Source of the DNA: Escherichia phage vB_EcoM-RPN187
Strand: one strand, 5' to 3'
Sequence record: OL770074.2
Length of the DNA stretch: 64,000 bases
The position numbers and the translations under genes were made by a program. The notes beneath the pieces were generated by a model. It ran no database searches and had not been told where the DNA came from. It saw only the letters and a list, made by a program, of their open reading frames with translations. Position 1 is the first letter of the stretch; the number at the start of each line of letters is the position of its first letter. Below are positions 452 through 60,548 of the stretch, piece by piece.

Positions 452-481
452 ATTATACCATATTAATACTTAAGCGTAAAC
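452..481 (-). promoter_or_regulatory. T4-type early promoter (-35 GTTTAC, 18-nt spacer, -10 TATAAT)
   Basis: Minus strand reads GTTTAC (476-481) then 18 nt then TATAAT (452-457), about 30 nt upstream of ATG at 421. Confidence 0.55.
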
Positions 482-484
482 TGT

Positions 485-745
485 TTAAGCTTTACCGCCG
501 GAAATAATTCCGAAGTTGTTAAAATCGTATCCAATATCGTCAACATCTACTTTAGGACTTGTAGCAACATAAGCAATTTCACTACGTTTTGCATAGGTGT
601 TGATTTCTTTACCATCGCCACCTAAGAAAAAATACCCATTACGTTTTAATGAGCCAAAGTCTTCCGCATCACCAATGAAAGCTTTAACTTTAAATTTAGG
701 ACCTTTGGCATCTGCTTCAGCGATAAATTCTTGATACATTTTCAT
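485..745 (-). CDS. internal-protein-like small protein with capsid-targeting-sequence N-terminus
   Basis: ORF track 86 aa; starts MKMYQEFIAE|ADAKG (I-A-E fits gp21 protease L/I-x-E cleavage consensus). ATG verified at 745-743. Confidence 0.55.
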   Translation of the reverse strand: MKMYQEFIAEADAKGPKFKVKAFIGDAEDFGSLKRNGYFFLGGDGKEINTYAKRSEIAYVATSPKVDVDDIGYDFNNFGIISGGKA

Positions 746-751
746 TTTTCC

Positions 752-1165
752 TTAGTAAATTGATTTACCATAGTATTTGTACCAAGTAGGACGTTGAGCA
801 ATTTTTTCATCTAAGCGTGCTTGACTTATCGCAATGGACGCTTCGGACGGGACATAATTATTACGAAATTCGGCAGGGATGTCGGAAATATCCTGGACAG
901 TCGTGTCCTTGATTTTGAAACCACGTTTCAAGCATTCAGCGATTAGCTCGATTTGTCGTAAACGTAAAAATTCGAGTTTGTCGTAAAAGAATGTTACGTG
1001 GCCGGTGCCTAAGATAAATGTTGGAGAGATTTTAAAATCCCTTACACGTTTACCGTTTTGAACATGTTTACGGACTGCACTAAATACACGTGGTAATTCA
1101 CGATACTCAGCCATAAGATGTTGGTCGGTCAGTTCAGAAACAAGTGTTAAATTGATACGAGTCAT
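752..1165 (-). CDS. denV: endonuclease V, pyrimidine-dimer DNA glycosylase
   Basis: [28 protein letters not shown]...[13 protein letters not shown] is near-identical to T4 DenV over its whole length (memory). ORF track begins at a TTG 4 codons upstream; ATG at 1165-1163 with GGAGGAA SD is the likely start. Confidence 0.9.
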
Positions 1166-1223
1166 AATTTCCTCCAAGTAGTTGATGAATGTATAATATC
1201 AAAACCCTTGGAGGAAGTAAACA

Positions 1224-1505
1224 CTATTTTTCTGAAGCGCCTGAAATATATTTTTCAAGACGTTGTTTCATTAGCGAGCCGTTCTTAGCGATTTCTTCCG
1301 GTTTATCGCACATACGCAACAAGGCTTCAAGCTTAACGATATCGCTGGTACGTTCAAATTTGCGAGTATCTATCTTACTAGCAAGTTCAGAAATACGTGC
1401 TAATAGACTTTCAGCTTCAACCAAAGCTGCGCCTAGCTTAGTTGCAAATGTGTCAGTAGCTTCGTTAAGAATAGATTCTGATAAAAATTCACTATATGTT
1501 TTCAT
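1224..1505 (-). CDS. internal-protein-like protein (ipII/ipIII position between denV and e)
   Basis: From ATG at 1505-1503: [10 protein letters not shown]|[10 protein letters not shown]..., 93 aa; ATGA overlap with lysozyme stop (1502-1504). ORF track starts 5 codons upstream at a TTG. Confidence 0.55.
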
Positions 1506-1990
1506 ATATACGCTTTCCAAGTTCCTGTTTTAAATGTTGAGATTACGCGTTTCGCGCGATTAGGTGTCTGACGATACCATTTAGATTGGGCTAGATTTAC
1601 TGCCGCTTCATCCCAACGTTTCTGTTGAAGCATACGAAGAGAATTAGTAAAACCAGCAACGCCTGCTACACCCATTTGGAAGACCATATTGACCAATGCA
1701 CATCGACGAACCGCATCTAAAGAATCATATACCGGTTTAAGTTTAGCATTACCCAAGATTCCTCGAACGGCTTTATCAACGTCTTCATTAAATAGCTTTT
1801 CGGCCTCATCAAGGGTAATTGTACCGTTGCATTTACGTCCGATCATTCTGTCAAGTTCAGCTTTAGCTACGGCTAAAGACGGGTTCTTTGTTACTAAATG
1901 ACCTATGCCAATCGTCCAAAAGCCTTCAGTGTCTTTGTATAAAGACAGTCTAAGACCTTCGTCATTACGAAGCATTTCAAATATATTCAT
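1502..1990 (-). CDS. e: lysozyme (endolysin), T4 e type
   Basis: [32 protein letters not shown]...[18 protein letters not shown]; near-identical to T4 lysozyme (memory). ATG at 1990-1988 preceded by GGAGG; ORF track starts at an upstream GTG. Confidence 0.95.
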
Positions 1991-2029
1991 AATACCTCCC
2001 ACGTTTATAGGAGGTATTTATTACTTATA
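1991..2029 (-). promoter_or_regulatory. hairpin sequestering the e ribosome-binding site, with late-promoter-like boxes
   Basis: Perfect 9-bp inverted repeat aatacctcc (1991-1999) / ggaggtatt (2010-2018); on the mRNA the 3' arm GGAGGUAUU is the SD directly before AUG. Loop contains TATAAACG and TATAAGTA lies at 2022-2029 (minus), resembling the late consensus TATAAATA. Confidence 0.6.
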
Positions 2030-2483
2030 GGAGGGTAGTGAGCACCTTATATAATGATTTGCCCATTACATATTCCCATTGAGAAGGTTTAATTAACGCG
2101 AATGCATCAAATTCAGGAATCTGTCTTCCGTCCGGGAACGTATGATAGGAATTACAAACACTGTTTCTGAATTGCTCGTGCTCTACAGGGATGGTATATA
2201 GGAACAGATGAATATTCTTATTGTCTGAGTAATGATGTTCACCTAGGTCTTTCAGGAAGGCAGGGTCATATTGTGTAAACCCAGTTTCTTCTTCGCATTC
2301 ACGAATAGCGGCTTCGATAGGAGATTCACCGGGCTCGACACGACCTTTAGGAATATCCCACCGATGAGCTAAAGAACCTTTAGGACGAGAACCAGTTACA
2401 CGCCCCATGAATAATTCTTTATCTTCGGTAAGGAAAATAATACCAGCTGATAGTTCTTTCACTTTATTTTTCTTACTCATCAT
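2025..2483 (-). CDS. nudE: Nudix hydrolase
   Basis: Nudix box-like GRVEPGESPIEAAIRECEEETGF; position next to e as T4 e.1/nudE. Start chosen at ATG with ATGA overlap to upstream stop; ORF track starts 5 codons earlier. Confidence 0.8.
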   Translation of the reverse strand: MMSKKNKVKELSAGIIFLTEDKELFMGRVTGSRPKGSLAHRWDIPKGRVEPGESPIEAAIRECEEETGFTQYDPAFLKDLGEHHYSDNKNIHLFLYTIPVEHEQFRNSVCNSYHTFPDGRQIPEFDAFALIKPSQWEYVMGKSLYKVLTTLL

Positions 2484-2971
2484 CTCAAATTCCTGCATTC
2501 GGTAATAAAACGTTCAACTTCATTATTCTTGGCCTTTATCTTGTCTTTATGTTCTTGTAAACTACTTTTAATAAGATTAATAATGATGGCGGCGGTACCG
2601 CCGCCAATGATGCCACCAACAACACTTATGATAATAGATGCTAATAAGATAGCAATAATATCAACAAAACCGAAAGAACTCACCTTAGTACTGAAAAACC
2701 ATATAGATGGTACAAATATAATCCATCCTGTTATCCATTGGCACTTATTGAAAAACTTTTCAAGCTCAGCTTGAGTTGTTCGTATTACTTCATCGATAGG
2801 TTGATATCCATTAATGTATCTGTTCACAATAATACCTGCTGGCTGGTCGATTTTAAATTCTTGGCAAATACGTTTCACTAAGTAGGATGGACATCCTGTC
2901 CATCCTACTGAATAGTATGAAATACCTTCGTTGCCATCGTCTATATTAGACCAATATGTTTTGTTAATCAT
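2480..2971 (-). CDS. hypothetical membrane protein, C-terminal FITECR motif
   Basis: ORF track 163 aa; hydrophobic/Gly-rich segment IIAILLASIIISVVGGIIGGGTAAIIINLI; ends ...ERFITECRNLR. Confidence 0.5.
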   Translation of the reverse strand: MINKTYWSNIDDGNEGISYYSVGWTGCPSYLVKRICQEFKIDQPAGIIVNRYINGYQPIDEVIRTTQAELEKFFNKCQWITGWIIFVPSIWFFSTKVSSFGFVDIIAILLASIIISVVGGIIGGGTAAIIINLIKSSLQEHKDKIKAKNNEVERFITECRNLR

Positions 2972-3657
2972 TACCAGCCTTCCATAGGGAATTCCAGATA
3001 AACTTGGGCGTTGACACGAATTTCATTGGTAATCTTTTTAAATCGGTCTGTATTACGAGATACACGTCCGAACCAACGCCATCCATTACTAATTGCACGA
3101 GAACCAGTGTGCCATGTTTGCCAATCAAACTGAAGAAGAGTACGATCTGGAGCTTCCCATTTCTCTAGTTCACCTTTTTCAATTTTTTCGAGGACTTCTT
3201 TGTGCCACTGGCGATAGATAAGTTCGCCATCAGGAATCTGACTGAACTCTGCAGTTCCTGTTGCAAAATGAGTAGGACACACATCAGCGTTAACAAGACC
3301 AAGAATATGTTCAGAATGGTAACGAGGGTTATCATAATCAGGTTGTCCTGCAGTAATAAAGTGTTGACCAACTGGAATATCAGGGCGTGGTACATCATCA
3401 TGGTGATATCCAGGAATAGCAGGATACCAACCAGGCATCAGCATGTGAACTCGTGAATCAAATACTACATCCGAGTCTTTCCAATCATCAGGAAGATTTT
3501 GGATAAAGCTACGAGTAATTGGGCCACCATTATCAAAAGCAAAATTCAAATCGCAGTTAAAGAACATAGGCTCGTTTTTAATCTGGTTGTTTTTAATCTC
3601 ATGAGCAAAACCACCTACTGCACGAGCTTGGCTATTAAACACTTTAGAACTATTCAT
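2971..3657 (-). CDS. hypothetical protein (HHDD motif; possible metal-dependent enzyme)
   Basis: ORF track 228 aa; ATG verified 3657-3655. Contains PGYHHDD and later His residues (YHSEH, WHTGSR). Fold not assignable by eye. Confidence 0.5.
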   Translation of the reverse strand: MNSSKVFNSQARAVGGFAHEIKNNQIKNEPMFFNCDLNFAFDNGGPITRSFIQNLPDDWKDSDVVFDSRVHMLMPGWYPAIPGYHHDDVPRPDIPVGQHFITAGQPDYDNPRYHSEHILGLVNADVCPTHFATGTAEFSQIPDGELIYRQWHKEVLEKIEKGELEKWEAPDRTLLQFDWQTWHTGSRAISNGWRWFGRVSRNTDRFKKITNEIRVNAQVYLEFPMEGW

Positions 3658-3658
3658 A

Positions 3659-3964
3659 TTATTTTCCTCGGCATTCTTTAATGAAATTTTCTAGATTGGT
3701 AGATTCAATAGCTTTTTTACGAGCTTCTGCGTGTTCTTCTTCAGACAATTTACATTTATAATTGACCCAGGCATTATGGTCGAAACTAGTCGTGGCATAT
3801 AATAACAATGCTCCGACGAATAATAAAAACGGTGATAAGAATACAAAACCAGGAACACCATCCATATCGTAAGCCTTTTGTAATACTGCAACAGAAAGGG
3901 CCGCGTAAAAAGGTGATGCAAATATTGTTAAAAGACCAATTCGGTTGGTTTCTGTTAATTTCAT
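3659..3964 (-). CDS. small membrane protein, C-terminal ENFIKECR motif
   Basis: ORF track 101 aa; two hydrophobic helices (LLTIFASPFYAALSVAVL, FVFLSPFLLFVGALLLYA); GAGGAG SD; ends ...NLENFIKECRGK. Confidence 0.5.
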   Translation of the reverse strand: MKLTETNRIGLLTIFASPFYAALSVAVLQKAYDMDGVPGFVFLSPFLLFVGALLLYATTSFDHNAWVNYKCKLSEEEHAEARKKAIESTNLENFIKECRGK

Positions 3965-3992
3965 ATTATTCTCCTCATGTTTTAATAGGACT

Positions 3993-4022
3993 ACTATAAC
4001 ATAGTCCTATCATGTTGTAAAC
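3993..4022 (-). promoter_or_regulatory. T4-type early promoter embedded in a stem-loop
   Basis: Minus strand GTTTAC (4017-4022), 18 nt, TATAGT (3993-3998); 9-bp inverted repeat ataggacta/tagtcctat (3985-4010) spans the -10 region. Confidence 0.55.
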
Positions 4023-4034
4023 AGTTTTGTGAAG

Positions 4035-4991
4035 TTATTTGAAAGGTTTCACCATATGAAAATTTTCTTTAAACCGTTTGATGTAATCATTTTTGCCGAG
4101 CTTATGATACATAGCCACTACTTCATAATAGTTCTCGTATGCGTACTCACGGAACCAACCAGAGGTGATGCTTGTACAGACCTTTTCCAATGCCATCATG
4201 AAACTGGCTTCAGGGTTAATTTTAAAGTCATTAGGAATCTGAGAACGTTCTAATGCTAGTACACATGATTCTTCGTATACACCGGCCAATTTGACCATTT
4301 CTGGTAATGATTCGAACTTCTCTCGTGAGGTCATGACTTCAGAACCGTCTTTCATATAAAATGTATACGCTGGACGGTCTGTTAGCGCAATGGCTTCATG
4401 AATAGTATCATGGTCATATGTATAGATGTCATCTTTAAAGAACGCACTTTTAGAAGTGTCAAGAACTGGGTGAGCATAGTTCAAGGTTTCTTTCTGGCGT
4501 TTCAGCATAATTTCAGTAAGTTCATCGTTCAGTGTAACACCTTTACCGCGAAGATACTGAATATGGTTCATAGTCTTTAAAAAGAATGGATTATTTTTCT
4601 TGAAACGATGAGACATCTTAATTGCAAGACACATCTCAGGAGTTGCCCAGTAAAACCCGTTCAAACGGTCTTTAGTCAAATTTTTCTTGGCGTATTTTAA
4701 AAGGTCATAAGAAGACGTGAAATCTTCAGGAGTGAGTTCACCGACTAATTCACGGACATTAGTGATTGCCGGAACAATATATGCTTCAAAATGAGTTTCG
4801 CGTCCGTTATGGAAACATTTGAAAACTTGGACACCAGGGTTATCTTGATGAACGTATACACCCATCATTTGATTTTTGAATGCATTCCAAGAACCTTGGT
4901 CTGCAATAAAGTCCCAGTCACTATTTTTGATAGCGTTAGAATCAATAAGACCGTGATAGTGAAGTGCACGAGAACCAATAACTAACATCAT
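4035..4991 (-). CDS. hypothetical protein, 318 aa (possible nucleotidyltransferase-like N-terminus)
   Basis: ORF track; ATG verified with GAGGAAA SD. N-terminus IGSRALHYHGL...NSDWDFIAD loosely resembles the GS...DxD motif of Pol-beta-fold nucleotidyltransferases; spacing is longer than typical. Confidence 0.5.
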   Translation of the reverse strand: MMLVIGSRALHYHGLIDSNAIKNSDWDFIADQGSWNAFKNQMMGVYVHQDNPGVQVFKCFHNGRETHFEAYIVPAITNVRELVGELTPEDFTSSYDLLKYAKKNLTKDRLNGFYWATPEMCLAIKMSHRFKKNNPFFLKTMNHIQYLRGKGVTLNDELTEIMLKRQKETLNYAHPVLDTSKSAFFKDDIYTYDHDTIHEAIALTDRPAYTFYMKDGSEVMTSREKFESLPEMVKLAGVYEESCVLALERSQIPNDFKINPEASFMMALEKVCTSITSGWFREYAYENYYEVVAMYHKLGKNDYIKRFKENFHMVKPFK

Positions 4992-5019
4992 AATATTTTC
5001 CTCGGATTAATTCATTAAC

Positions 5020-5271
5020 TTAAATTTCACGACATGCGATATCATATTCATCCCATAGGTCATCGTGTGAAGCCTCTACTAATGGAACGATTGTACCATT
5101 TATGTCTTCATTATAAGGGCAAATTGTACAGTGTGCATCTTCGAATCGGATGCCTTTGTGTTCAGATTTTTTATAACGCATATCGAATATCTTTGCAAAC
5201 TTTTCACGAGTAATGGTTTTAGCAACCACTTTGGTTCCAACACTTTCGTAATAAATCATTGTGGACTCCAT
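5020..5271 (-). CDS. hypothetical small protein
   Basis: ORF track 83 aa; own early promoter upstream (5288-5317); ATG verified 5271-5269. Confidence 0.45.
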   Translation of the reverse strand: MESTMIYYESVGTKVVAKTITREKFAKIFDMRYKKSEHKGIRFEDAHCTICPYNEDINGTIVPLVEASHDDLWDEYDIACREI

Positions 5272-5287
5272 TTAATTTGATAGGACT

Positions 5288-5317
5288 ACTATAACATAGC
5301 CCTATCTTGTTGTAAAC
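5288..5317 (-). promoter_or_regulatory. T4-type early promoter next to an imperfect stem-loop
   Basis: Minus strand GTTTAC (5312-5317), 18 nt, TATAGT (5288-5293); near-identical sequence to the 3993-4022 promoter. Confidence 0.55.
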
Positions 5318-5321
5318 TGTT

Positions 5322-5519
5322 TTAGCAAGAATAACTAGATGATACCCAGCCTTGAACAGTAATACTATTATTTGATACCGAGATTGCATTCTGGAGATTC
5401 AAACCTGCATTATCTTCAATCCACAATGTAACTTCTTCGCGTTCTTCTGTTGCAATTTGGAACAGGTTTTCTAGGGCAGCTACTGCCGTACGTACAGCAC
5501 AATCCAATTCACGAGACAT
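5322..5519 (-). CDS. small protein, member of tandem paralogue family with C-terminal GWVSSSxxC motif
   Basis: ORF track 65 aa; ends ...TVQGWVSSSYSC; ATG verified. Confidence 0.45.
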   Translation of the reverse strand: MSRELDCAVRTAVAALENLFQIATEEREEVTLWIEDNAGLNLQNAISVSNNSITVQGWVSSSYSC

Positions 5520-5528
5520 ATAGTTTCC

Positions 5529-5801
5529 TTAGCAAGTGTGAGAAGATGCAATCCAACCACCAGTTTCAAGGCTCAGGTTGTAGTCGTATTGGTAAACGTC
5601 AGCCCATTCAGCATAGCCGTTTTTTGTACAACGTTCAAGATCGGCTTTAAGTTGTCCGGGTGAATGATATGTTCCACCCATACCATAAGCTGGATACAAG
5701 TCGAATGTTGTGTTTTGTTTATCAGCAATTTCTTTGGCAGCCTCAATAGCTGCATAGATTTTTGCTACGGCTTCAGCCAGTTCGGTTTGTTCTTTAGACA
5801 T
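5529..5801 (-). CDS. small protein, member of tandem paralogue family with C-terminal GWIASSxxC motif
   Basis: ORF track 90 aa; ...YGMGGTYHSPG...ETGGWIASSHTC; stop runs into SD TAAGGAA of the next gene. Confidence 0.5.
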   Translation of the reverse strand: MSKEQTELAEAVAKIYAAIEAAKEIADKQNTTFDLYPAYGMGGTYHSPGQLKADLERCTKNGYAEWADVYQYDYNLSLETGGWIASSHTC

Positions 5802-5810
5802 AATGATTCC

Positions 5811-6116
5811 TTAGCACAACGCAGAAGACGAAACCCAAGCACCTTCAGTAATAACGTAACCATTACCTTCACGCTTAACATCGCCACCATTATTTTCAAT
5901 TTCATCTTTCATCCACTGGGATACGATTTCACCCTTAGGATAATAAGTACGACCGCTACCATAATCACCTACAGAAAATGATACGGCGTATTGGTCTGCG
6001 ATCTTTGTTGCTTCTTCTTCGATACGTTCAGCTTGATTCAGAAGTTTATAAATTGCATCTGAAGCGGATTTGGCATCATTAAACTCTGGTACTTTAATTT
6101 CAATAATCTTACTCAT
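5811..6116 (-). CDS. small protein, member of tandem paralogue family with C-terminal AWVSSSxxC motif
   Basis: ORF track 101 aa; ...GDYGSGRTYYPKG...TEGAWVSSSALC; ATGA overlap with upstream gene. Confidence 0.5.
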   Translation of the reverse strand: MSKIIEIKVPEFNDAKSASDAIYKLLNQAERIEEEATKIADQYAVSFSVGDYGSGRTYYPKGEIVSQWMKDEIENNGGDVKREGNGYVITEGAWVSSSALC

Positions 6117-6472
6117 TTTCTACATTCCTTAATAAAGTTTTCGATTGTTTCATTTTCACGTCTAGCTAGGAGTTCATTATAACTAATCATTTGAGAAGCG
6201 TAAACCTTTTTATTTTTCTTGTTATGGTTTATAAAATCGTAGTAAAAATAGACTACAGTACAAAATGATGCGATGGATGCAAAGGCTTGGGTATACCGTA
6301 AGTCCTGCCATTGGTCTGTGAATCCACCAGTGTTCCCTATAAATCCTAACACAACGCCGTCAATAAGAAATCCAACTAATCCAAAGGCAAATCCCATGCC
6401 AATACTCATAATAAAAATTAGAATGTTCTCACCAAGAGAAGGCCATACGGTTAAGAGTTGAGGCTTTTGCAT
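6113..6472 (-). CDS. membrane protein, C-terminal ENFIKECRK motif
   Basis: ORF track 119 aa; hydrophobic/Gly-rich segments (ILIFIMSIGMGFAFGLVGFLIDGVVLGFIG); ends ...ETIENFIKECRK. Confidence 0.5.
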   Translation of the reverse strand: MQKPQLLTVWPSLGENILIFIMSIGMGFAFGLVGFLIDGVVLGFIGNTGGFTDQWQDLRYTQAFASIASFCTVVYFYYDFINHNKKNKKVYASQMISYNELLARRENETIENFIKECRK

Positions 6473-6846
6473 CTTATTTCCTTAACGAATTCCATAGCTT
6501 CTTCATATTCGTACTTTTTAACAGCTTCATCATACTGAGCTTGGGCTTTTGCGCACTGAACTTTCCATTCTCTTAATCGGGCTCTATAATGACGTCCTTG
6601 GTGCCAATATCCTACCCAATTAATAGGCATTAATAAAAACGGTACAATAAGTGGTGCGACGAACATTAATGAAAATGCTGCATCAGACGATATAACTTCA
6701 CTAGAATCTAAAACAGCTCCTATAATCATAAAGATTAAAAATGCTAAAGCTAAAATAGGGCCAAATAGTACTTCGTTTGGGATTAATTTACGCTTGTATT
6801 CATACGCCCAGGGCTTAATTGGCATGTATAGGGTTGGCTTTGACAT
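6451..6846 (-). CDS. membrane protein (start uncertain)
   Basis: ORF track 6451..6876 starts at a TTG; first ATG at 6846-6844. Hydrophobic helices (FGPILALAFLIFMIIGAV, FSLMFVAPLIVPFLL); ends ...EFVKEIRCKSLNS. Confidence 0.4.
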   Translation of the reverse strand: MSKPTLYMPIKPWAYEYKRKLIPNEVLFGPILALAFLIFMIIGAVLDSSEVISSDAAFSLMFVAPLIVPFLLMPINWVGYWHQGRHYRARLREWKVQCAKAQAQYDEAVKKYEYEEAMEFVKEIRCKSLNS

Positions 6847-7411
6847 ATTCTCTACATTCCATAATAAATTGCTCAAGGATTAAATTGTTAGTGAAATTAG
6901 GACTAACAACCATGGTTTCATAAAGCGCATCAATAGCACTTAAAGCATCAACTCTTTTAAGCAAAGGCTTGCCTTCATACATAGTTTCAGAATCGACGAT
7001 TAACGTAAAGTAATATTTTTTATTATTGACCAGAACTTCTGTATCAATATAAAACATGTTAGATCTTAAAAGCTTATCTCTAAAACCATAATAATCTTCA
7101 GAGCGTTCGCTGATATATTCCAATTCAGTGTTTAAACAACAAACAGACCACGTAGGAGCAACGAAATCAGTGAATCTAATATCATGGTCTGCAACTAGTT
7201 TAGCAATAGCTCCGATATCATGAATCATAATACCTGGGGCTAATAAAGATTTTCGGTTATTTGCATATTCAGTTGTCTCATAAGAAGACGACCAGTACCA
7301 TTTACGTCCAGTTGCAACATATCGTAATGAATCAACTAAAGACGTAGGTGGATTTACCTTATTTCGGAACTCTTCGAACATTGAGTCAATATCATTATTT
7401 TGGTTTCGCAT
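6815..7411 (-). CDS. hypothetical protein with C-terminal EQFIMECRE motif
   Basis: ORF track 6815..7432; ATG at 7411-7409 with AAGGAG SD is the likely start (MRNQNNDIDSMFEEF...). Confidence 0.5.
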   Translation of the reverse strand: MRNQNNDIDSMFEEFRNKVNPPTSLVDSLRYVATGRKWYWSSSYETTEYANNRKSLLAPGIMIHDIGAIAKLVADHDIRFTDFVAPTWSVCCLNTELEYISERSEDYYGFRDKLLRSNMFYIDTEVLVNNKKYYFTLIVDSETMYEGKPLLKRVDALSAIDALYETMVVSPNFTNNLILEQFIMECREYVKANPIHAN

Positions 7412-7430
7412 GTTAACTCCTTTATTATCC

Positions 7431-7452
7431 AAAAGGAGGACCGGAGTCCTCC
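7431..7452 (-). terminator. intrinsic terminator-like hairpin
   Basis: 7-bp stem ggaggac/gtcctcc with cgga loop (7435-7452); minus strand followed by UUUU; lies 9 nt after the stop of the 7461..8054 gene. Confidence 0.4.
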
Positions 7453-7460
7453 GTATTATT

Positions 7461-8054
7461 TTATTTCAAAGAGTTAATATATTCTTGTACATCAGCAGAA
7501 GTGGTTTCGACACCAGCTGGAGTGCCATTGAACGTTTCAACACGAGTCAGAGTGTCTTCGATATCAACCTTAGTCAGTGCAGCGATTTCAATTACATCGT
7601 CAGCCGTAGAGATACCAAGGGCATTGGCTGCTCGAGTTTCACGAATGTATTCGAGTTTGATTGCCAGGTTCTGACGAGCATCGTCAAGTTCAACCACCTT
7701 ACGAGCAATTTCAATTCGCATAGCAGCGTACCCGTCAGCTTTTGTATTAAGTTGTTCGGCGGTTCGACGATACAGAAGACCAAGCTTAGCATGCATGGTA
7801 ACATCTTGTCCTTCAGCCAGGAGCTTACGAATTTCAAGTTCCTTAGAAGCGGCTTGCTTATTCTTTTCATTAACAAGTTCGCGAATACGTTTTTCTTCAT
7901 TAATAGATTTAACAGAAGCCGTTTTTAGTTCTTTGATTTGGGTAATCAACTTATCTGCGGCTGCGTTATACTGTTCTTCGACAGTCAGATTTTTAGCCAT
8001 AGCAGTACCCAGTTTAGTGCGGATGAATTCAACAAGTTTCTTCAGTGTGTTCAT
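7461..8054 (-). CDS. coiled-coil protein, possibly PspA/IM30-like
   Basis: ORF track 7461..8069; ATG at 8054 with GAAAGG SD. About 197 aa, predominantly helical/charged, resembling PspA by eye only. Confidence 0.45.
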
Positions 8055-8125
8055 ATTATTACCTTTCAATTGGTGGTTTATTATCCAATGAGAGCATTAT
8101 ACTCTGCTCTCAAGAGTTTGTACAC

Positions 8126-8407
8126 TTATTTGTACGAATTAATAATCTCTTCCATTTTATCCAGAACATGGATATCGATTATACGAGGAAGTGCCGAAAG
8201 ATTAGAACCGTCGAAAGATTTAAGGTCTTCCAAAATAATATTTTCAATGGCCTTTAAAGCTTCCGCAGATTCTGATGCAGAATTAAATTCAGGAATTTCT
8301 CCAAAAAGACGTAAGAATGAACCAAAGTATTCTGCGGCGATTTCTTTAGCTTGTTCGATATCAGACTTAAACATTTTGTTTTCCTCATTTGTTGGTGGAG
8401 TAATCAT
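8126..8407 (-). CDS. hypothetical protein
   Basis: ORF track 93 aa; ATG verified with AAGGATGG SD. Confidence 0.45.
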   Translation of the reverse strand: MITPPTNEENKMFKSDIEQAKEIAAEYFGSFLRLFGEIPEFNSASESAEALKAIENIILEDLKSFDGSNLSALPRIIDIHVLDKMEEIINSYK

Positions 8408-8431
8408 ATCACCATCCTTGGCGTTTGTACA

Positions 8432-8935
8432 TCATTTATTTTTAATTTTGCAAATTTTTTCTGCTTCAGCAATTGCAGCGTCAATGATGCTTTGTGCAAT
8501 TTTATTACTAGTTGACCTGGCAATCACACTAAGAACAATTTCTTTTTCTTCACCACCCCAACCCCAAGTCCTTTGTTCGTGGGTACCTTTAACTACAGCT
8601 GAAACTTCAACAGAACGTCCACCATCAGAAGTTTTAACATCTACAACCCAATCACCATCTTTCTCTTCTACCCTTGATTTATCCCAAGAAATACTAATAT
8701 ATGATTCGTTGTCAATAGAAGTCGCCGGGTTTTTCTCTACCGTAAGACCTTCACTTTCCAGCCATTCAATAGTATTTGCGCATAAATCGGAGGAACACCT
8801 CATCGGGAACCGGCAAGATTTTTCACCTTTAGATGCGGCGTTATACATCTTTTCTAAAATACGCTTTTGCACGTTTTTAAAAATAGTTTCAGCAGATTCT
8901 TCAGATTTTTTATTCAGTTCAGTATAAAGACTCAT
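8432..8935 (-). CDS. hypothetical protein
   Basis: ORF track 167 aa; ATG verified with AGGAAA SD; early promoter upstream. Confidence 0.5.
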   Translation of the reverse strand: MSLYTELNKKSEESAETIFKNVQKRILEKMYNAASKGEKSCRFPMRCSSDLCANTIEWLESEGLTVEKNPATSIDNESYISISWDKSRVEEKDGDWVVDVKTSDGGRSVEVSAVVKGTHEQRTWGWGGEEKEIVLSVIARSTSNKIAQSIIDAAIAEAEKICKIKNK

Positions 8936-8963
8936 AACATTTTCCTATGTTGTTGATAAGTCT

Positions 8964-8992
8964 ATAGTATCATGTCCTTAGAAGAAGTAAAC
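8964..8992 (-). promoter_or_regulatory. T4-type early promoter
   Basis: Minus strand GTTTAC (8987-8992), 17-18 nt, TACTAT (8964-8969). Confidence 0.5.
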
Positions 8993-9025
8993 ATCTTTAT
9001 GAAATATTTTTATGCCCTAGATACC

Positions 9026-9052
9026 AAAAAGCCCCAACCGTAAGGAAGGGGC
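9026..9052 (-). terminator. rho-independent terminator
   Basis: gcccc...ggggc stem (9031-9052) preceded on plus by aaaaa, i.e. followed by U-run on minus; just downstream of stop of 9059..9523. Confidence 0.6.
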
Positions 9053-9058
9053 ATTCTA

Positions 9059-9523
9059 TTATTTAATTTGTTTAGCAGACCAGATACGGTCTTTAATAAG
9101 TTTTTGGATATCTTCAACATACTCAAGGCTATGAGCGTGAGGATTATCTTTGAAGCTATGTGCTCGTGCCAGTTTCTGGCCTTCTGTTTTGATTACTAAA
9201 AGCTCTTTAAGAATTGCTTCATACTTAGAAATAATTCCTTTGGCGATATTTTTTTCTTGAGCGGCTTTAGGGTCCGCTTTTGGCGCAGGTGCTTTACCTG
9301 TAGCTTTCTGGAACAATTCACCTGATGCAGCTAGGCTTTTAAAAACTCGGCTAACAGTATTAGCATTAGTAAAACCTTCGGCTTTAAAATCTCTAATAAA
9401 ACGGAAACGTTCTTCATCAGAGGCGTCTTTGTAAGAATATTTACCTGCTCTAATTGCTGCAATCGCAGCGGCTTTTACATCTGAACTAGATTGTTCAGTC
9501 AAAAATTCAGCGTATGATTTCAT
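9059..9523 (-). CDS. internal-protein-like protein with capsid-targeting-sequence N-terminus
   Basis: ORF track 154 aa; MKSYAEFLTE|QSSSD...; Lys/Ala-rich; ATG verified 9523-9521. Confidence 0.55.
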   Translation of the reverse strand: MKSYAEFLTEQSSSDVKAAAIAAIRAGKYSYKDASDEERFRFIRDFKAEGFTNANTVSRVFKSLAASGELFQKATGKAPAPKADPKAAQEKNIAKGIISKYEAILKELLVIKTEGQKLARAHSFKDNPHAHSLEYVEDIQKLIKDRIWSAKQIK

Positions 9524-9567
9524 GTTGCTTTTCCTAAGTTAATTAACTTATCTATTTATTATTATGC

Positions 9568-9595
9568 AAAAAAGCCCCAACCTTTCGGAAGGGGC
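9568..9595 (-). terminator. rho-independent terminator closing the tRNA/stable-RNA transcription unit
   Basis: GCCCCUUCCGAAAGGUUGGGGC followed by UUUUUU on minus; near-copy of the 9026-9052 hairpin. Confidence 0.6.
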
Positions 9596-9602
9596 TATGC
9601 CT

Positions 9603-9905
9603 TGCGGCAACCTTGTCGGGGTTCCACCTGCTAAGGCAAGTGTTTGTACGAAACGCCGGGATTCGAACCCGGTTATTAAGCAGTTGACGCTACTCAATAT
9701 TTTTAAAAGGCCATATCTCGACCATATCCGAACGTTCCGTCAAAAACGCTACTCGGCTTACGGCAAAGATATTTCCTCGAATCGATAATTCTGTGCGCCG
9801 TTTCAGCTGTGATAGTAAAGAACCAGAACACAGTAAAACTGTGGGAGGAACTATACTCCAGGGAACATCAGTCCGACGACTTACCGGTAGCGACCCGGTT
9901 TCTTG
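9603..9905 (-). ncRNA. putative small stable RNA(s) downstream of tRNA-Arg, with tRNA-like T-arm
   Basis: About 300 nt with no credible ORF on the minus strand, between tRNA-Arg and a terminator. Contains a T-arm motif CCGGGUUCGAAUCCCGG (9655-9672) with possible acceptor pairing CGGAACG/CGUUUCG. T4 encodes stable RNA species at the same place (memory). Boundaries not resolved. Confidence 0.3.
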
Positions 9906-9907
9906 TT

Positions 9908-9983: not shown

Positions 9984-9987
9984 GATT

Positions 9988-10062: not shown

Positions 10063-10066
10063 AAAT

Positions 10067-10153: not shown

Positions 10154-10162
10154 AAATTAATT

Positions 10163-10237: not shown

Positions 10238-10238
10238 T

Positions 10239-10314: not shown

Positions 10315-10319
10315 AAAAC

Positions 10320-11504: not shown

Positions 11505-11690
11505 CTATTCACCTTTAGAAATTTTATCCATAACGATAGCAATTAAACCAATTAAAAATGCTACTACAAGTGAAAACACATTTTCTGCTGTAGTTAATAA
11601 TCCGCATATAAATCCAACAAACATTGAAAAACTAAAAGCGGAAGCAGAAATTGCAATAGCAACATTTCGAATTAATTCACAACGTTTCAT
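11505..11690 (-). CDS. hypothetical small membrane protein
   Basis: ORF track 61 aa, largely hydrophobic; ATG verified; early promoter upstream. Confidence 0.35.
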   Translation of the reverse strand: MKRCELIRNVAIAISASAFSFSMFVGFICGLLTTAENVFSLVVAFLIGLIAIVMDKISKGE

Positions 11691-11718
11691 TTTATTCTCC
11701 TCTGTAGTTGATAGGGTA

Positions 11719-11748
11719 ATAGTATCACTACCCCATCTAAAAGTAAAC
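11719..11748 (-). promoter_or_regulatory. T4-type early promoter
   Basis: Minus strand GTTTAC (11743-11748), 18 nt, TACTAT (11719-11724). Confidence 0.5.
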
Positions 11749-12021
11749 TCATTTTAAATAAATTGCGTATTTTTTATAGCCACCAGGCTCGTGTCGAAGA
11801 CCCTTATCATTAGCAAAACGCTCAATGTTGTTAATTTGATTCTGGTCAAGTTCAGAGATGTCAAACACGAAATAGTTACGTTTGTTACCAACTGTTACAT
11901 AGTCAGTTAAATCAATACCATATAGGTAATTGATGTCAGCAATCATAGTCTTGACAGCTTTGCTAATTTTTACTTTTTCGTTAAAAGTAGCTTCATTGAT
12001 AAATTCTTTAAATGTTTTCAT
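11749..12021 (-). CDS. internal-protein-like small protein with capsid-targeting-sequence N-terminus
   Basis: ORF track 90 aa; MKTFKEFINE|ATFNE...; ATG verified 12021-12019. Confidence 0.55.
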   Translation of the reverse strand: MKTFKEFINEATFNEKVKISKAVKTMIADINYLYGIDLTDYVTVGNKRNYFVFDISELDQNQINNIERFANDKGLRHEPGGYKKYAIYLK

Positions 12022-12052
12022 TTTATTTTCTTAATTAATTTTGATAGGACCT

Positions 12053-12082
12053 ACTATAACATAGTCCTATCAACATGTAAAC
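12053..12082 (-). promoter_or_regulatory. T4-type early promoter beside a stem-loop
   Basis: Minus strand GTTTAC (12077-12082), 18 nt, TATAGT (12053-12058); inverted repeat taggac...gtcctat at 12044-12070. Confidence 0.55.
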
Positions 12083-12084
12083 TA

Positions 12085-12348
12085 TTAAATACCTGCTTCG
12101 CGCTTAACATAAGCAACATAAGCTTCGATAGCTTTCTTGCTGGTAATTTTTACCTGACCGCGTCCGTTGCCTTCTTTAGAGTTTTTCTTAACAACTACAT
12201 TACCATCTTTAACACCCCATACATGGACATAAGTACCGATGTTTCGGTCGTAGAACATTGCATGGTCGTTGTTGTAAGAGAATGATTCGTAGTTCTCTGT
12301 CAGAGTAGAAGATTGAGATTCAGCGATAAATTCTTTATACGTTTTCAT
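12085..12348 (-). CDS. internal-protein-like small protein (ipI position) with capsid-targeting-sequence N-terminus
   Basis: ORF track 87 aa; MKTYKEFIAE|SQSS...; ATG verified 12348-12346; lies between tRNA cluster and 57B as ipI does in T4. Confidence 0.55.
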   Translation of the reverse strand: MKTYKEFIAESQSSTLTENYESFSYNNDHAMFYDRNIGTYVHVWGVKDGNVVVKKNSKEGNGRGQVKITSKKAIEAYVAYVKREAGI

Positions 12349-12382
12349 TTTATTTCCTTGAGGTCGTTTATTTGATAGGATG

Positions 12383-12412
12383 ATAGTAACACACCATCAT
12401 CCTTATGTAAAC
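12383..12412 (-). promoter_or_regulatory. T4-type early promoter embedded in a stem-loop
   Basis: Minus strand GTTTAC (12407-12412), 18 nt, TACTAT (12383-12388); inverted repeat aggatgat/atcatcct around the -10. Confidence 0.55.
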
Positions 12413-12425
12413 TGTTTTGTGAAAA

Positions 12426-13111
<686 letters not shown>

Positions 13112-45164: not shown

Positions 45165-45434
45165 TTATTTCTGTGCAATTTCGATGTAAGTTTTCAAAAT
45201 ATTTTGCCAATTAGGCATACCTTCTTGGACATATGCCGGAGAACCATCTTTGTTTTTGAATGACGCAAGTTTATCAGTGGCCCAATAACCTTTAGCTCGA
45301 GCTTCGGAATCAACTTTCATCCATACTTTGTTGAAGGCATTACCATTAACTTTTGCACCATATTTTTCTACTAATCTAACTGCTTCAGCTTCCAGAACTT
45401 TTAAAGTATCTCGTAAGAAACGTGCTTTAGTCAT
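45165..45434 (-). CDS. hypothetical early protein between genes 23 and 24
   Basis: ORF track 89 aa; own early promoter; ATG verified. Confidence 0.45.
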   Translation of the reverse strand: MTKARFLRDTLKVLEAEAVRLVEKYGAKVNGNAFNKVWMKVDSEARAKGYWATDKLASFKNKDGSPAYVQEGMPNWQNILKTYIEIAQK

Positions 45435-45464
45435 TTTGTTTACTCCTCTGTAGTTGATAAGTCT

Positions 45465-45494
45465 ATAGTATCACATACCAAATACGTTGTAAAC
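45465..45494 (-). promoter_or_regulatory. T4-type early promoter
   Basis: Minus strand GTTTAC (45489-45494), 18 nt, TACTAT (45465-45470). Confidence 0.5.
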
Positions 45495-45500
45495 AATCTT

Positions 45501-45508
45501 TATAAATA
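45501..45508 (+). promoter_or_regulatory. late promoter TATAAATA for gene 24
   Basis: Exact TATAAATA 28 nt upstream of gene 24 ATG, 7 nt from the divergent early promoter. Confidence 0.55.
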
Positions 45509-45535
45509 ATCTATATCACATAAGGAAAAAATGCA

Positions 45536-48220: not shown

Positions 48221-48417
48221 TTCTTCACCTTTTTGTTAATAAAACGTTTACGGTATACAACTTTTTCTTTTGCTTTAAACTTTGACCGAGCTGTCTCGGC
48301 TTTAGTCCATAGTAATCCAACTTCTTTAGGTTGTAAACCGATTTTTTGAGCAATTTCTACGAATGAAAATCCCGCCTCATGTAATGTATAAACTTCAACT
48401 TCAGCTCTCATAATCAA
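48217..48417 (-). CDS. hypothetical small protein with possible helix-turn-helix (T4 24.3 position)
   Basis: ORF track 66 aa; FSFVEIAQKIGLQPKEV resembles an HTH; basic C-terminus. Confidence 0.45.
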   Translation of the reverse strand: MIMRAEVEVYTLHEAGFSFVEIAQKIGLQPKEVGLLWTKAETARSKFKAKEKVVYRKRFINKKVKK

Positions 48418-58081: not shown

Positions 58082-58089
58082 GGATTATT

Positions 58090-59199
58090 ATGATTAGTGT
58101 AAAAGAAATAGTAGTAGATGCAAAGGATTTAAATAAAGCAATCCCAGTCTCAGAAAGTGCTGGGCAAAGCACTAAAACCGAAACAACTACTAAAACTTAT
58201 GTTGCTCAATTTCCTACAGGAAGAGCAGCCGGAAATGACTCCACAGGAGACTTCCAGGTAACAGATCTTTATAAGAATGGATTATTATTTACCGCGTACA
58301 ATATGTCTGCACGCGATTCAGGATCCCTCAGGAATTTACGTCCGGCATACGCCGGCACTTCATCTAACGGTATCATATCAGATTTAACTGATAATGTGAA
58401 AGATGCAGTGACTAAATTCTCTAATGGGTTGCTTCCTGCCGGAGCTAATAAACCTACTATAAATAAAACTCCTGTTGCTAATATACTTTTGCCACGTTCC
58501 AAATCTGACGTTGATACAACTTCACATCGTTTTAATGATATTGGTGATAGCCTTATTACTAAAGGTGGAGGTACTGCTACGGGTGTTTTAAGTAACATTG
58601 CTTCTACTGCAGTTTTTGGTGCATTAGATTCTATTACTCAAGGGCTTATGGCTGATAATAACGAACAGATTTATACGACTTCTCGTAGTATGTACGGCGG
58701 TGCTGAGAACCGTACTAAAGTCTTTACATGGGATTTAACTCCACGTTCAACTGAAGACCTTATGGCTATTATAAACATTTACCAGTATTTTAACTATTTC
58801 TCATATGGTGAGACCGGTAAATCACAGTACGCCCAAGAGATTAAAAGTTATTTAGACGAATGGTACCGTTCAACGTTTATTGAGCCTATGACGCCTGATG
58901 ATGCAGTAAAAAATAAGACATTGTTTGAAAAGATTACTGCGTCATTAACAAATGTATTAGTTGTAAGCAACCCTACAATTTGGATGGTTAAAAACTTTGG
59001 TTATACGTCTAAATTTGATGGATTAACTGACGTATTTGGCCCATGTCAAATTCAAAGCGTACGTTTTGATAAAACTCCAAATGGACAATTTAATGGTCTT
59101 GCTGTTGCTCCTAACTTACCGTCAACATTTACGTTAGAGATAACAATGCGAGAAATTATTACATTAAACCGTTCTTCACTTTATGCGGGGACTTTCTAA
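58090..59199 (+). CDS. 48: baseplate-tail tube junction protein gp48
   Basis: 369 aa (T4 364); synteny. Confidence 0.9.
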   Translation: MISVKEIVVDAKDLNKAIPVSESAGQSTKTETTTKTYVAQFPTGRAAGNDSTGDFQVTDLYKNGLLFTAYNMSARDSGSLRNLRPAYAGTSSNGIISDLTDNVKDAVTKFSNGLLPAGANKPTINKTPVANILLPRSKSDVDTTSHRFNDIGDSLITKGGGTATGVLSNIASTAVFGALDSITQGLMADNNEQIYTTSRSMYGGAENRTKVFTWDLTPRSTEDLMAIINIYQYFNYFSYGETGKSQYAQEIKSYLDEWYRSTFIEPMTPDDAVKNKTLFEKITASLTNVLVVSNPTIWMVKNFGYTSKFDGLTDVFGPCQIQSVRFDKTPNGQFNGLAVAPNLPSTFTLEITMREIITLNRSSLYAGTF

Positions 59200-60161
59200 T
59201 GTACTCTTTAGAAGAATTTAATAACCAAGCTATAAATGCAGATTTCCAACGAAACAATATGTTTAGTTGTGTATTTGCTACTACACCGTCGACCAAATCG
59301 TCTTCACTAATTTCGTCAATTGGTAGTTTTGCTTATAATAACTTAGGGTTGGATTCAGATTGGCTAGGATTATCTCAAGGTGATATCAATCAGGGCGTAA
59401 CAACCCTGATTACAGCAGGAACACAGAAATTAATTCGAAAATCAGGTGTAAGTAAATATCTGATTGGAGCAATGAGTCAACGTACGGTACAAAGCTTGTT
59501 AGGCGAGTTCACAGTAGGAGCTTATCTGATAGACTTCTTCAATATGGCATATAATAATACAGGTTTAATGATTTATTCTGTAAAAATGCCTGAGAACCGA
59601 TTATCTTATGAAACGGATTTCAACTATAACTCTCCGAACATCCGAATTACCGGCCGTGAAATGGACCCGTTAGTAATAAGCTTTAGAATGGATTCCGAAG
59701 CATCTAACTTTAGAGCAATGCAAGACTGGGTAAACTCAGTCCAAGACCCTGTAACAGGTCTTCGTGCTTTACCACAAGACGTCGAAGCAGATATTCAGGT
59801 TAATTTACATGCACGAAATGGTTTACCACATACCGCTGTCATGTTCACCGGATGTATTCCTGTTAGTGTCTCTTCTCCTGAGTTAACGTATGATGGTGAT
59901 AATCAGATAACAGTTTTTGATGTAACATTTGCTTATCGCGTTATGCAATCAGGTGCCGTAAATAGACAGGCTGCTTTAGAATGGCTGGAATCAGGACTTA
60001 TTAGTAGTGTTTCAGGAATGTTTGGAAATAATCAGAATGATTCTGGCCTAGGAAGTGCAGTATCAAGACTTTCTAGATTAGGTGGGACTGCTGGAGGTGT
60101 GTCTAATATAAACACATTGACAGGTGTGGTGAATTCTGCGTCAAGAGTTTTAGGACTATAA
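59199..60161 (+). CDS. 54: baseplate-tail tube initiator gp54
   Basis: 320 aa as T4 gp54. Confidence 0.9.
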   Translation: MYSLEEFNNQAINADFQRNNMFSCVFATTPSTKSSSLISSIGSFAYNNLGLDSDWLGLSQGDINQGVTTLITAGTQKLIRKSGVSKYLIGAMSQRTVQSLLGEFTVGAYLIDFFNMAYNNTGLMIYSVKMPENRLSYETDFNYNSPNIRITGREMDPLVISFRMDSEASNFRAMQDWVNSVQDPVTGLRALPQDVEADIQVNLHARNGLPHTAVMFTGCIPVSVSSPELTYDGDNQITVFDVTFAYRVMQSGAVNRQAALEWLESGLISSVSGMFGNNQNDSGLGSAVSRLSRLGGTAGGVSNINTLTGVVNSASRVLGL

Positions 60162-60163
60162 GG

Positions 60164-60190
60164 AAAAAAGGGAGACGTCGTCTCCCTTTA
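60164..60190. terminator. bidirectional terminator between gene 54 and the minus-strand alt region
   Basis: A6 run, gggagacg/cgtctccc hairpin, T-rich tail. Confidence 0.55.
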
Positions 60191-60195
60191 GGGGT

Positions 60196-60489
60196 TTATT
60201 TACGGAATGAAAGGAATGCTGGTGCTCGGAATGGAGTATCATCTTTAGAGTATTTAACTAATACGACCATTGGTACCTCTGTTTCTAAATGACCTGTCAC
60301 TACACCGACAAAAATTTGATCAGTGTGCTCAGGGTCGCGAAAGTTTTTAAGAGGTTCCATAGCAATATGGAATGCACCTGGGAATACTCGATTCAATTCG
60401 TCAATCACAGCTTCGTTAAAAGCATCATCCGCTGGGATAACATCTTCAACTACTAGTTCTTGACCATTAAAGCGAAGCATAGATTTCAT
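60196..60489 (-). CDS. hypothetical protein downstream of alt
   Basis: ATG at 60489 with GAGGAAA SD gives 97 aa (MKSMLRFNGQELVVEDVIP...); ORF track 60196..60561 overlaps the alt 3' end. Confidence 0.45.
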   Translation of the reverse strand: MKSMLRFNGQELVVEDVIPADDAFNEAVIDELNRVFPGAFHIAMEPLKNFRDPEHTDQIFVGVVTGHLETEVPMVVLVKYSKDDTPFRAPAFLSFRK

Positions 60490-60518
60490 AACGTTTTCCT
60501 CATGTTGTTGATGGGATG

Positions 60519-60548
60519 ATAGTATCACACATCCATGTGTTTGTAAAC
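60519..60548 (-). promoter_or_regulatory. T4-type early promoter overlapping the alt stop codon
   Basis: Minus strand GTTTAC (60543-60548), 18 nt, TACTAT (60519-60524). Confidence 0.5.

Follow-up and report, generated by a model that had tools for sequence, protein, structure and literature searches.

Predicted early promoter cassettes, start-bridging hairpins and gene-exchange junctions in Escherichia phage vB_EcoM-RPN187

The 64,000-nucleotide stretch of Escherichia phage vB_EcoM-RPN187 analysed here (record OL770074.2; hereafter the window) carries a promoter-like element that recurs on one strand beside small accessory genes, in several copies within an inverted repeat. What are these elements, what might the inverted repeats do, and do the elements mark the places at which genes have been exchanged? 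The answer that we consider likely is that they are early promoter cassettes of the RB69 type, about half of them with hairpins that would form in read-through RNA, and that they recur as junctions at which genes are swapped. Positions 1-14000 of the window are 99.4% identical to Escherichia phage AV113 (OR352943), a member of the genus Mosigvirus in the RB69 group.

Probable early promoters of an RB69-like phage

The motif GTTTAC-N18-TAnnnT has 11 matches in the window, every one of them on the minus strand. Shuffled sequence gives an expectation of 0.88; none of 100 shuffles reached 11, and the maximum was 4. An earlier reading of the window, made from the sequence only, had listed nine sites with GTTTAC and an 18-nt spacer. 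Eight of these are among the 11 matches, and the ninth, at 8964-8992, has a spacer of 17 nt instead. Further sites beyond that list lie at 1193-1222, 6176-6205 and 48309-48338, and two additional copies with weaker -35 boxes were found at 8096-8125 (GTGTAC) and 8403-8432 (ATGTAC). Shifted by one base, the motif becomes TTTACA-N17-TAnnnT and has the spacing canonical for sigma-70, together with a TGn extended -10; nine of the 11 exact matches have the TG, as does 8964. Alignment of 13 cassettes, each some 80-110 bp long, gives a consensus that opens with an A-rich UP element (AAnTTnTnAnAAAAnA) ahead of the -35 and continues through GTTTAC, TGn and the -10 to a conserved start region (CCTATCAA), a Shine-Dalgarno (SD) sequence and the ATG. 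All cassettes are on the early-gene strand, and 13 of the 14 stand 25-60 nt upstream of a minus-strand ATG with an SD, the exception being the match at 48309, inside an open reading frame (ORF).

Early promoters of RB69 have been predicted by Nolan et al. 2006 (PMC1524935) and are given in a supplementary list, with which the window can be compared directly. RB69 positions 64193, 64934, 67959, 69254 and 70143 are spaced as are window positions 481, 1222, 4022, 5317 and 6205, given a 219-bp indel, and RB69 109605, 112451 and 125323 have their counterparts at window 45494, 48338 and 60548. Both sets share the GTTTAC -35, the TGn, the TAnnnT -10, an A-rich UP element and C-rich positions -3 to -1, and in both the promoters precede early genes and novel ORFs on the early strand, although the genes between the cassettes differ between the two phages. 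That these are T4-type early promoters, as had been proposed, thus agrees with their consensus, their strand, their place upstream of minus-strand ORFs and the spacing of the RB69 list. Their assignment as sigma-70-dependent early promoters of an RB69-like (Mosigvirus) T4-type phage is well supported, with promoter activity predicted from these sequence features.

The individual copies are less alike than had been claimed. The description of the cassettes as near-identical, with 25-45 bp of near-identical flanking sequence, is overstated: mean column identity over the 13 aligned cassettes is 48%, and median pairwise identity is 47% over 70 nt. The longest exact matches between copies measure 20-22 bp (three pairs), with a median of 9 bp, and the only close copies are 3993 versus 5288 (92% over 48 nt) and 3993 versus 12053 (73%).

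Predicted hairpins across the start site

Minus-strand RNA was folded from just after the -35 to +14 and compared with 200 shuffles per cassette. Significant hairpins were found at 7 of the 14 cassettes, with z-scores from -3.9 to -6.0 and none of the 200 shuffles as stable. Six of these, at 3993, 5288, 8096, 11719, 12053 and 12383 (-13.8 to -16.1 kcal/mol), share a layout that we call class A, in which the 5′ arm is in the spacer, the -10 is in the loop and upper stem, and the 3′ arm extends from about -6 to +3. The seventh, class B, is at c1193, upstream of denV. Here the 5′ arm, TTCCTCCAAG (1216-1207), occupies the part of the spacer next to the -35, and its partner, CTTGGAGGAA (1178-1169), covers the denV SD (GGAGG); the 10-bp pairing gives a hairpin at 1169-1216 (-18.9 kcal/mol, z -5.1). 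The same folding test gave no significant hairpin at 452, 6176, 8403, 8964, 45465, 48309 or 60519. Inverted repeats had previously been noted at the -10 of three cassettes, and all three were recovered as hairpins (3983-4012, 12041-12073 and 12377-12403), each with 0/200 shuffles as stable. The repeat at 5288, described as imperfect, does contain one G.U pair, yet it is not weaker for it and at -16.0 kcal/mol is among the most stable. The cassettes are as follows.

419..501, minus strand: c452, with -35 GTTTAC 481-476, -10 TATAAT 457-452 and ATG 421, upstream of an IpIII-like internal-protein gene (MKTYKEFIAE...); no hairpin (z -0.23)
1163..1242, minus strand: c1193, upstream of denV, with -35 1222-1217 and -10 TATTAT 1198-1193; class B hairpin
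3962..4042, minus strand: c3993, with -35 4022-4017 and -10 TATAGT 3998-3993; class A hairpin 3983-4012 (-15.3 kcal/mol, z -5.1), the -10 in loop and 3′ arm
5257..5337, minus strand: c5288, with -35 5317-5312 and -10 5293-5288; class A hairpin 5279-5306 (-16.0 kcal/mol, z -6.0)
6114..6225, minus strand: c6176, with -35 6205-6200 and -10 6181-6176, within the 3′ part of ORF 6113-6472; no hairpin
8052..8145, minus strand: c8096, with -35 GTGTAC 8125-8120 and -10 TATAAT 8101-8096; class A hairpin TGAGAGCA/TGCTCTCA, 8089-8112 (-13.8 kcal/mol, z -3.9)
8372..8452, minus strand: c8403, a weaker early-type promoter, with -35 ATGTAC 8432-8427 and extended -10 TGATATGAT (-10 8408-8403)
8933..9012, minus strand: c8964, with 17-nt spacer, -35 8992-8987 and -10 TACTAT 8969-8964, after a terminator hairpin at 9021-9052; no promoter hairpin
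11688..11768, minus strand: c11719, upstream of a trna.4 homologue, with -35 11748-11743 and -10 11724-11719; class A hairpin 11710-11737 with one G.U pair (-16.1 kcal/mol, z -4.2)
12019..12102, minus strand: c12053, upstream of an internal-protein-like gene (MKTFKEFINE...); class A hairpin 12041-12073 (-14.6 kcal/mol, z -4.4)
12346..12432, minus strand: c12383, upstream of an internal-protein-like gene (MKTYKEFIAE...); class A hairpin 12377-12403 (-15.4 kcal/mol, z -4.6)
45432..45514, minus strand: c45465, upstream of a small variable ORF between genes 23 and 24; no significant hairpin
48309..48338, minus strand: consensus match inside ORF 48217-48417, without TGn and without hairpin, corresponding to RB69 Pe:112451
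60487..60568, minus strand: c60519, downstream of alt and upstream of an alt.-3 homologue; no significant hairpin

It is uncertain whether the match at 48309 is a functional promoter. In the annotation of AV113, a coding sequence at window 8126-8407 (minus strand) has its start ATG within the c8403 extended -10 (TGATATGAT). Translation more plausibly starts at 8374, after GAGGAAAA.

The 5′ arm of either class precedes the expected start, so only RNA begun at an upstream promoter can fold. In about half of the cassettes, then, the spacer is complementary to sequence at or after the start, and a hairpin would be formed by read-through RNA, while the promoter's own transcript, which would lack the 5′ arm, would form none. 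A comparable arrangement is known as the promoter-early stem-loop (PeSL) of phages RB49 and phi1, in which the stem-loop is mostly between the -35 and -10 or overlaps the -10 (Arbiol 2010, PMC2839356), so that the PeSL arrangement named in the earlier reading is a real one. According to the original PeSL proposal the stem-loops are terminators or attenuators of upstream transcription, insulating the cassettes transcriptionally, and the drop in lacZ expression caused by one RB49/phi1 PeSL stem-loop was close to that caused by the rrnB T1 terminator (Arbiol 2010, PMC2839356). The window hairpins are likewise intergenic and stable (-14 to -16 kcal/mol), and they stand in the path of read-through transcription. 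However, no U-tract follows any of the seven hairpins, whose tails are A-rich (for example AUCAAAAUUAA), and a terminator scan of the window flagged none of them while detecting genuine terminators at 7435-7452. The stems are AT-rich, unlike the GC-rich GGGG/CCCC stems of RB49 to which terminator activity was assigned, and the class B hairpin, with its 28-nt loop and a stem that ends in the SD, does not have the geometry of a terminator. At the sequence level, the terminator feature of PeSLs is thus not found in the window hairpins. On the missing U-tracts and the negative scan we rejected termination as their function, and we regard it as unlikely.

If pairing between spacer and start region matters, a spacer should pair better with its own (cognate) downstream sequence than with the downstream sequences of other promoters (non-cognate), and this is what was observed. 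For the whole genome of AV113 (43 promoters), cognate pairing averaged -10.35 versus -7.25 kcal/mol for non-cognate pairing (permutation p<5e-5); for positions 1-100 kb of T4 (27 promoters) the values were -11.53 and -7.07 kcal/mol (permutation p<5e-5), and for 40 kb of Acinetobacter phage DP45 (8 promoters) they were -10.61 and -8.09 kcal/mol (permutation p=0.005). By a strand-symmetric criterion, a helix of at least 8 bp with no more than two internal mismatches was formed by 32 of 82 cognate pairs (39%), compared with 9.4% of non-cognate pairs, and both hairpin classes are present genome-wide in AV113, T4 and the Acinetobacter phage. The stems differ in sequence while pairing is retained (GATAGGACT/AGTCCTATC, GGTACAGGT/ACCTGTACC, GTAGAGTT/AACTCTAC and TGAGAGCA/TGCTCTCA), and those of T4 are likewise divergent but complementary (GACAAGACT/AGTCTTGTC, CCTAGAATTGTGA/TCACAATTCTAGG). 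Among internal non-Watson-Crick positions, 9 are G.T and 1 is A.C (p=0.02), and the sense strand folds more strongly than the antisense strand (p=0.0025). Together, the G.T bias and the better folding of the sense strand speak for a structure formed by the single sense strand and less for a site recognised in duplex DNA.

An inverted repeat around a -10 could nonetheless act on DNA, either as the operator of a dimeric regulator, such as the factor that turns off early promoters, or as a cruciform or single-stranded DNA hairpin that serves as a recombination hot spot. GATAGG...CCTATC arms flank the -10 about two helical turns apart, the mechanism by which early promoters are shut off is unexplained (Uzan & Miller 2010, PMC3014915), and the G.T bias is also compatible with a folded non-template DNA strand. 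The cassette core, arms included, recurs at 92-95% identity over 40 nt in Acinetobacter, Serratia and Tequatrovirus phages, which could be taken in favour of this reading. This likeness can be convergent, since the 3′ arm is simply the start-region consensus of the promoter, which cassettes lacking a 5′ arm have as well, and the 5′ arm is its complement. Moreover, the stems vary freely with complementarity kept (GGTACAGGT/ACCTGTACC, GTAGAGTT/AACTCTAC, TGAGAGCA/TGCTCTCA, GACAAGACT/AGTCTTGTC), the register shifts, lengths range between 6 and 15 bp, and mismatches that are G.T and not A.C (9 versus 1) are contrary to duplex recognition. An operator in duplex DNA was rejected on these grounds, and any action of the repeats at the DNA level is, in our estimate, very improbable. 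In DP45 (L012; genus Lazarusvirus, subfamily Twarogvirinae), early promoters of the form GTTTAC-N18-TATAAT were seen at 7219-7248, 13090-13119, 20011-20040 and 35467-35496, with GATAGG.../...CCTATC arms, including G.U variants, bracketing the -10.

Start-bridging hairpins, their covariation in three genera and the strand-biased mismatches therefore argue for a function in read-through RNA and not in termination. Several observations weigh against giving the hairpins too large a role. Half of the window cassettes (7/14) are hairpin-free, so the hairpin is dispensable for promoter function. A class A hairpin leaves the SD free and lacks a U-tract, and its role is not evident from the sequence. 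Counted in a fixed register over 66 unselected promoters, covariation is modest, with 51% of cells paired versus 46.8+-1.4 in shuffles (1 of 500 shuffles matched); the signal is weak because only about a third of promoters use that register. And hairpins accompany 1 of 9 promoters with an upstream terminator versus 26 of 62 without one, which is the expected direction but a trend only (p=0.14). Compared with PeSLs, too, the stem-loop is a less regular component, present at only 7 of 14 cassettes in the window and at 39% of promoters genome-wide. Published stem-loops of PST and T4 are upstream of the promoter, whereas the window hairpins lie across the start site, and the words stem, hairpin and inverted repeat are absent from the paper that predicted the RB69 promoters (Nolan et al. 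2006, PMC1524935).

Predicted anti-SD hairpins at denV and regB

The class B hairpin at denV has relatives in other phages. In the DenV-encoding IMG/VR loci L016-L051, each promoter-to-ATG stretch was folded, giving 29 distinct upstream sequences, in most of which the denV SD is sequestered, by way of different stems. In one form the 5′ arm directly follows the -35 (CCAAG/CTTGG, TGTAG/CTACA, GTTTG/CAAAC, TGTG/CACA); in a second it consists of the -10 and discriminator (TATGATGTCTTCC), which pair with the SD and AUG (GGAGGACATCATG). Promoters of regB sequester the SD in 15 of 16 loci, again with varied stems (CTAGTTG/CAACTAG, CTTGACTG/CAGTTAAG, CTTTATG/CATAAAG, TGTAAG/CTTACA). For 12 lineage variants, the mean cognate pairing was -19.2 kcal/mol versus -11.6 kcal/mol with swapped partners, and the cognate partner was the best in 10 of the 12. 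In their predicted folds, denV and regB promoters thus keep the pairing across genera through compensatory changes. RNAalifold recovered only a 7-bp anti-SD:SD core from the regB promoters, for which the MAFFT alignment was not structure-aware; the regB analysis is based on per-sequence folds and partner swapping instead. Further class B stems, of 11-14 bp, are present in AV113 at 88838, 75929 and 131054. Some denV and regB promoters (L031, L108/L109) nest both classes, an outer anti-SD:SD stem enclosing a class A stem (GGGCCAT...ATGGCCC, for instance) around the -10.

What would such a hairpin accomplish? With an anti-SD tract after the -35 paired to the SD, read-through RNA would be untranslatable for the downstream gene, which would then be expressed from its own early promoter alone. 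T4 works on this principle at e, soc, 49 and I-TevI, where a late promoter is located inside a hairpin that sequesters the SD (Uzan & Miller 2010, PMC3014915; Edgell 2010, PMC2988022). As in that late gating, the class B 5′ arm is upstream of the proximal start, the 3′ arm is over the SD, and only read-through RNA can fold. The window itself retains a T4-type gating hairpin in its e leader (-18.3 kcal/mol), and the denV hairpin is equally stable (-18.9 kcal/mol). The e (lysozyme) hairpin, at 1982-2050 on the minus strand, has a 12-bp stem that sequesters the SD GGGAGG, with late-promoter-like boxes of the TATAAA type inside its 5′ arm and immediately upstream of that arm, arranged as at T4 e.

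The known gating in T4 involves late promoters, whereas class B involves an early promoter and early genes (denV, regB and others). In the reviews consulted, gating by a promoter within a hairpin is described for late genes only (Uzan & Miller 2010, PMC3014915; Edgell 2010, PMC2988022), the genes concerned being said to be "all late genes" (Edgell 2010, PMC2988022), and the regB section of Uzan & Miller 2010 (PMC3014915) mentions no hairpin. In the literature that we searched, no prior description of an anti-SD hairpin at an early promoter was found, although an earlier one is possible, older work having been outside the scope of the search; the early-promoter anti-SD hairpin may be under-described. 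What may be new here is that start-bridging hairpins, and anti-SD hairpins especially, are a conserved, covarying feature of early promoters across T4-type genera. We advance tentatively, with slightly more doubt than confidence, the general proposal that a good many T4-type early promoters lie inside RNA hairpins with the spacer as 5′ arm and that class B silences read-through translation as a translational insulator. If so, a class B gene would be expressed only in the first minutes of infection despite continuing transcription of the region, and promoter-gene cassettes would be independent of genomic context, which would explain their free shuffling. Class B would in this way offer a simple explanation for the restriction of some early genes to their own promoter, and for accessory-gene cassettes staying functional wherever they are inserted.

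Cassettes and junctions of gene exchange

Eleven of the 14 cassettes are within 1-12.5 kb, the region of the internal protein (IP) loci, the e.x ORFs and the tRNA flank. Gene order there is syntenic with T4 ipIII/denV/e/nudE, followed by e.x ORFs, a tRNA cluster and ipI/57B/1; after gene 1 come plus-strand late structural genes and finally 24, rnlB, alt and gene 30. Both T-even IP loci are present, with five IP-like genes on the minus strand (2-421, 485-739, 1224-1505, 11749-12021 and 12085-12348) that have in common an N-terminal capsid-targeting sequence (CTS), MKTYKEFIAE and variants. Of the more distant cassettes, c45465 adjoins a variable ORF, in whose place T4 and PST have segD, while c60519 does not, and its locus is conserved across the genus.

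Positions 1-15000 of the window were compared with seven relatives (JK36, ST0, mogra, LF82-9, phiE142, PTE-Eco05 and JM10) by chained BLAST alignments, with a breakpoint defined as an edge of an indel or replacement of at least 30 bp. The 33 distinct breakpoints include 13 in cassette zones, which run from the UP element to ATG+30 and cover 9.1% of the sequence, an enrichment of about 4-fold (binomial p=3e-6). Six of the 33 are in promoter cores, with 4.9% coverage (p=0.005). Three junctions are inside promoters, at 4015-4022, 8125-8131 and 11728-11731. The first, in c3993, is an indel junction with JK36 and ST0, both of which have an extra 201-bp ORF between two cassettes; in the window a single cassette stands in their place, a hybrid whose parts meet within GT(T/G)TACAA. 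At the second, homology of c8096 with other genomes begins at the TACAAAC of the -35, with a replacement junction at 8131. Another replacement junction, at 8372, is at c8403, and a deletion in phiE142 and PTE-Eco05 begins at 6205, in c6176. A 17-nt identical stretch (AAATAAGTGTACAAACT, a stop codon plus the GTGTAC -35) was seen at window 8115-8131 and at about 5346-5362 of JK36 (L006); in JK36 and ST0 it is at a different locus, the 3993 orthologue, and the adjoining ORFs are unrelated. A move of the JK36 ORF at the 3993 cassette to window 8126-8374 was considered and rejected, there being no protein similarity and only the 17-nt stretch in common.

The third in-promoter junction bounds a block of T4-like sequence. 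Positions 10218-11318 are 93.6% and 11501-11728 are 98.2% identical to T4, compared with 70-74% for neighbouring genes. The block spans most of the tRNA cluster through trna.4 and ends at 11728-11731 in c11719, between the -10 and the spacer, which suggests that 10218-11728 was acquired by exchange with a Tequatrovirus. Dozens of Tequatrovirus alignments terminate within 11728-11755. LF82-9 has the same allele as the window, with a fully T4-like promoter.

At the IP genes, bodies are exchanged between relatives with breakpoints just past the CTS codons (393-399 and 12316-12326), and the promoter and CTS-coding stretch are retained. PeSL-like early-promoter elements have been placed at the two T-even IP loci by Repoila 1994, as far as that work is reported in Arbiol 2010 (PMC2839356), where the T-even elements are termed analogues, not homologues, of PeSLs. 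The IP-locus polymorphism described there, to the extent relayed, has the same pattern of IP-body exchange as the window. Unlike those at the T-even IP loci, the window cassettes flank non-IP genes too, namely denV, e.x ORFs, trna.4 and alt.-3. Like PeSLs (Arbiol 2010, PMC2839356; Comeau 2014, PMC4122927), they join a strong early promoter to an SD and an ATG, with a stem-loop in half of the copies, and they are repeated in hyperplastic regions, flank small accessory ORFs and border indels between close relatives. Early promoters, PeSL-like cassettes and IP-locus shuffling are therefore already known, and the window cassettes add a further instance; as the biology is largely familiar, the main use of the finding is the correct annotation of this phage.

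How might the junctions have arisen? The cassettes could serve as sites of insertion, deletion and swapping by short-homology recombination, and would recur as junctions because they share an extended consensus and are positioned at gene boundaries; IP genes would be especially affected by such exchange. Alternatively, the coincidence of breakpoints and cassettes could reflect selection and hitch-hiking, in which accessory genes carry their own promoters as morons and only intergenic junctions survive. We judge this account, taken by itself, possible but somewhat doubtful. The points in its favour also count against the cassettes as the cause of exchange: 20 of the 33 breakpoints are outside cassettes, for example at 2480-2486 and in the tRNA cluster, and several fall at cassette-free gene junctions (2480-2486, 9907, 10839, 11120, 11501); the exact sequence common to cassette copies does not exceed 22 bp, microhomology only, at 47% median identity; and selection for viable intergenic junctions would by itself concentrate breakpoints at gene boundaries. 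On the other hand, three junctions fall within a promoter, at its -35 box or spacer, and not simply between genes, the many Tequatrovirus alignments stop in the same interval at 11728-11755, and mini-circles between PeSLs have been demonstrated experimentally in RB49/phi1 (Arbiol 2010, PMC2839356). The earlier proposal that the repeats mediate illegitimate recombination and account for the mosaic gene content is consequently upheld in part, by the enrichment and the in-promoter junctions, and is tempered by the breakpoints elsewhere and the shortness of the shared sequence. Recombination between cassettes as the cause of the junctions is partly supported and, from sequence comparison, inseparable from selection for viable intergenic junctions.

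Modules are also bordered by other elements. In ST0, 8998-9562 is replaced, so terminator repeats also border a swapped module. Two terminator hairpins, at 9021-9052 and 9564-9595, are GC-rich with U-tracts (-16.3 and -18.0 kcal/mol), 84% identical to each other, and flank ORF 9059-9523. At 2480-2486, all seven relatives have 219 bp inserted, with an ORF of about 237 bp, that the window and AV113 lack; the two sides of the junction overlap by 7 nt and no promoter cassette is present there, so that the indel is cassette-independent. The order of the ipIII-like gene and denV differs from that in T4. An Rfam scan of the window gave no matches besides 10 tRNA genes at 9908-10735 on the minus strand (Arg, Asn, Tyr, Met, Thr, Ser, Pro, Gly, Leu and Gln). 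The tRNA content is variable among relatives, and mogra, PTE-Eco05 and JM10 retain only Arg and Met.

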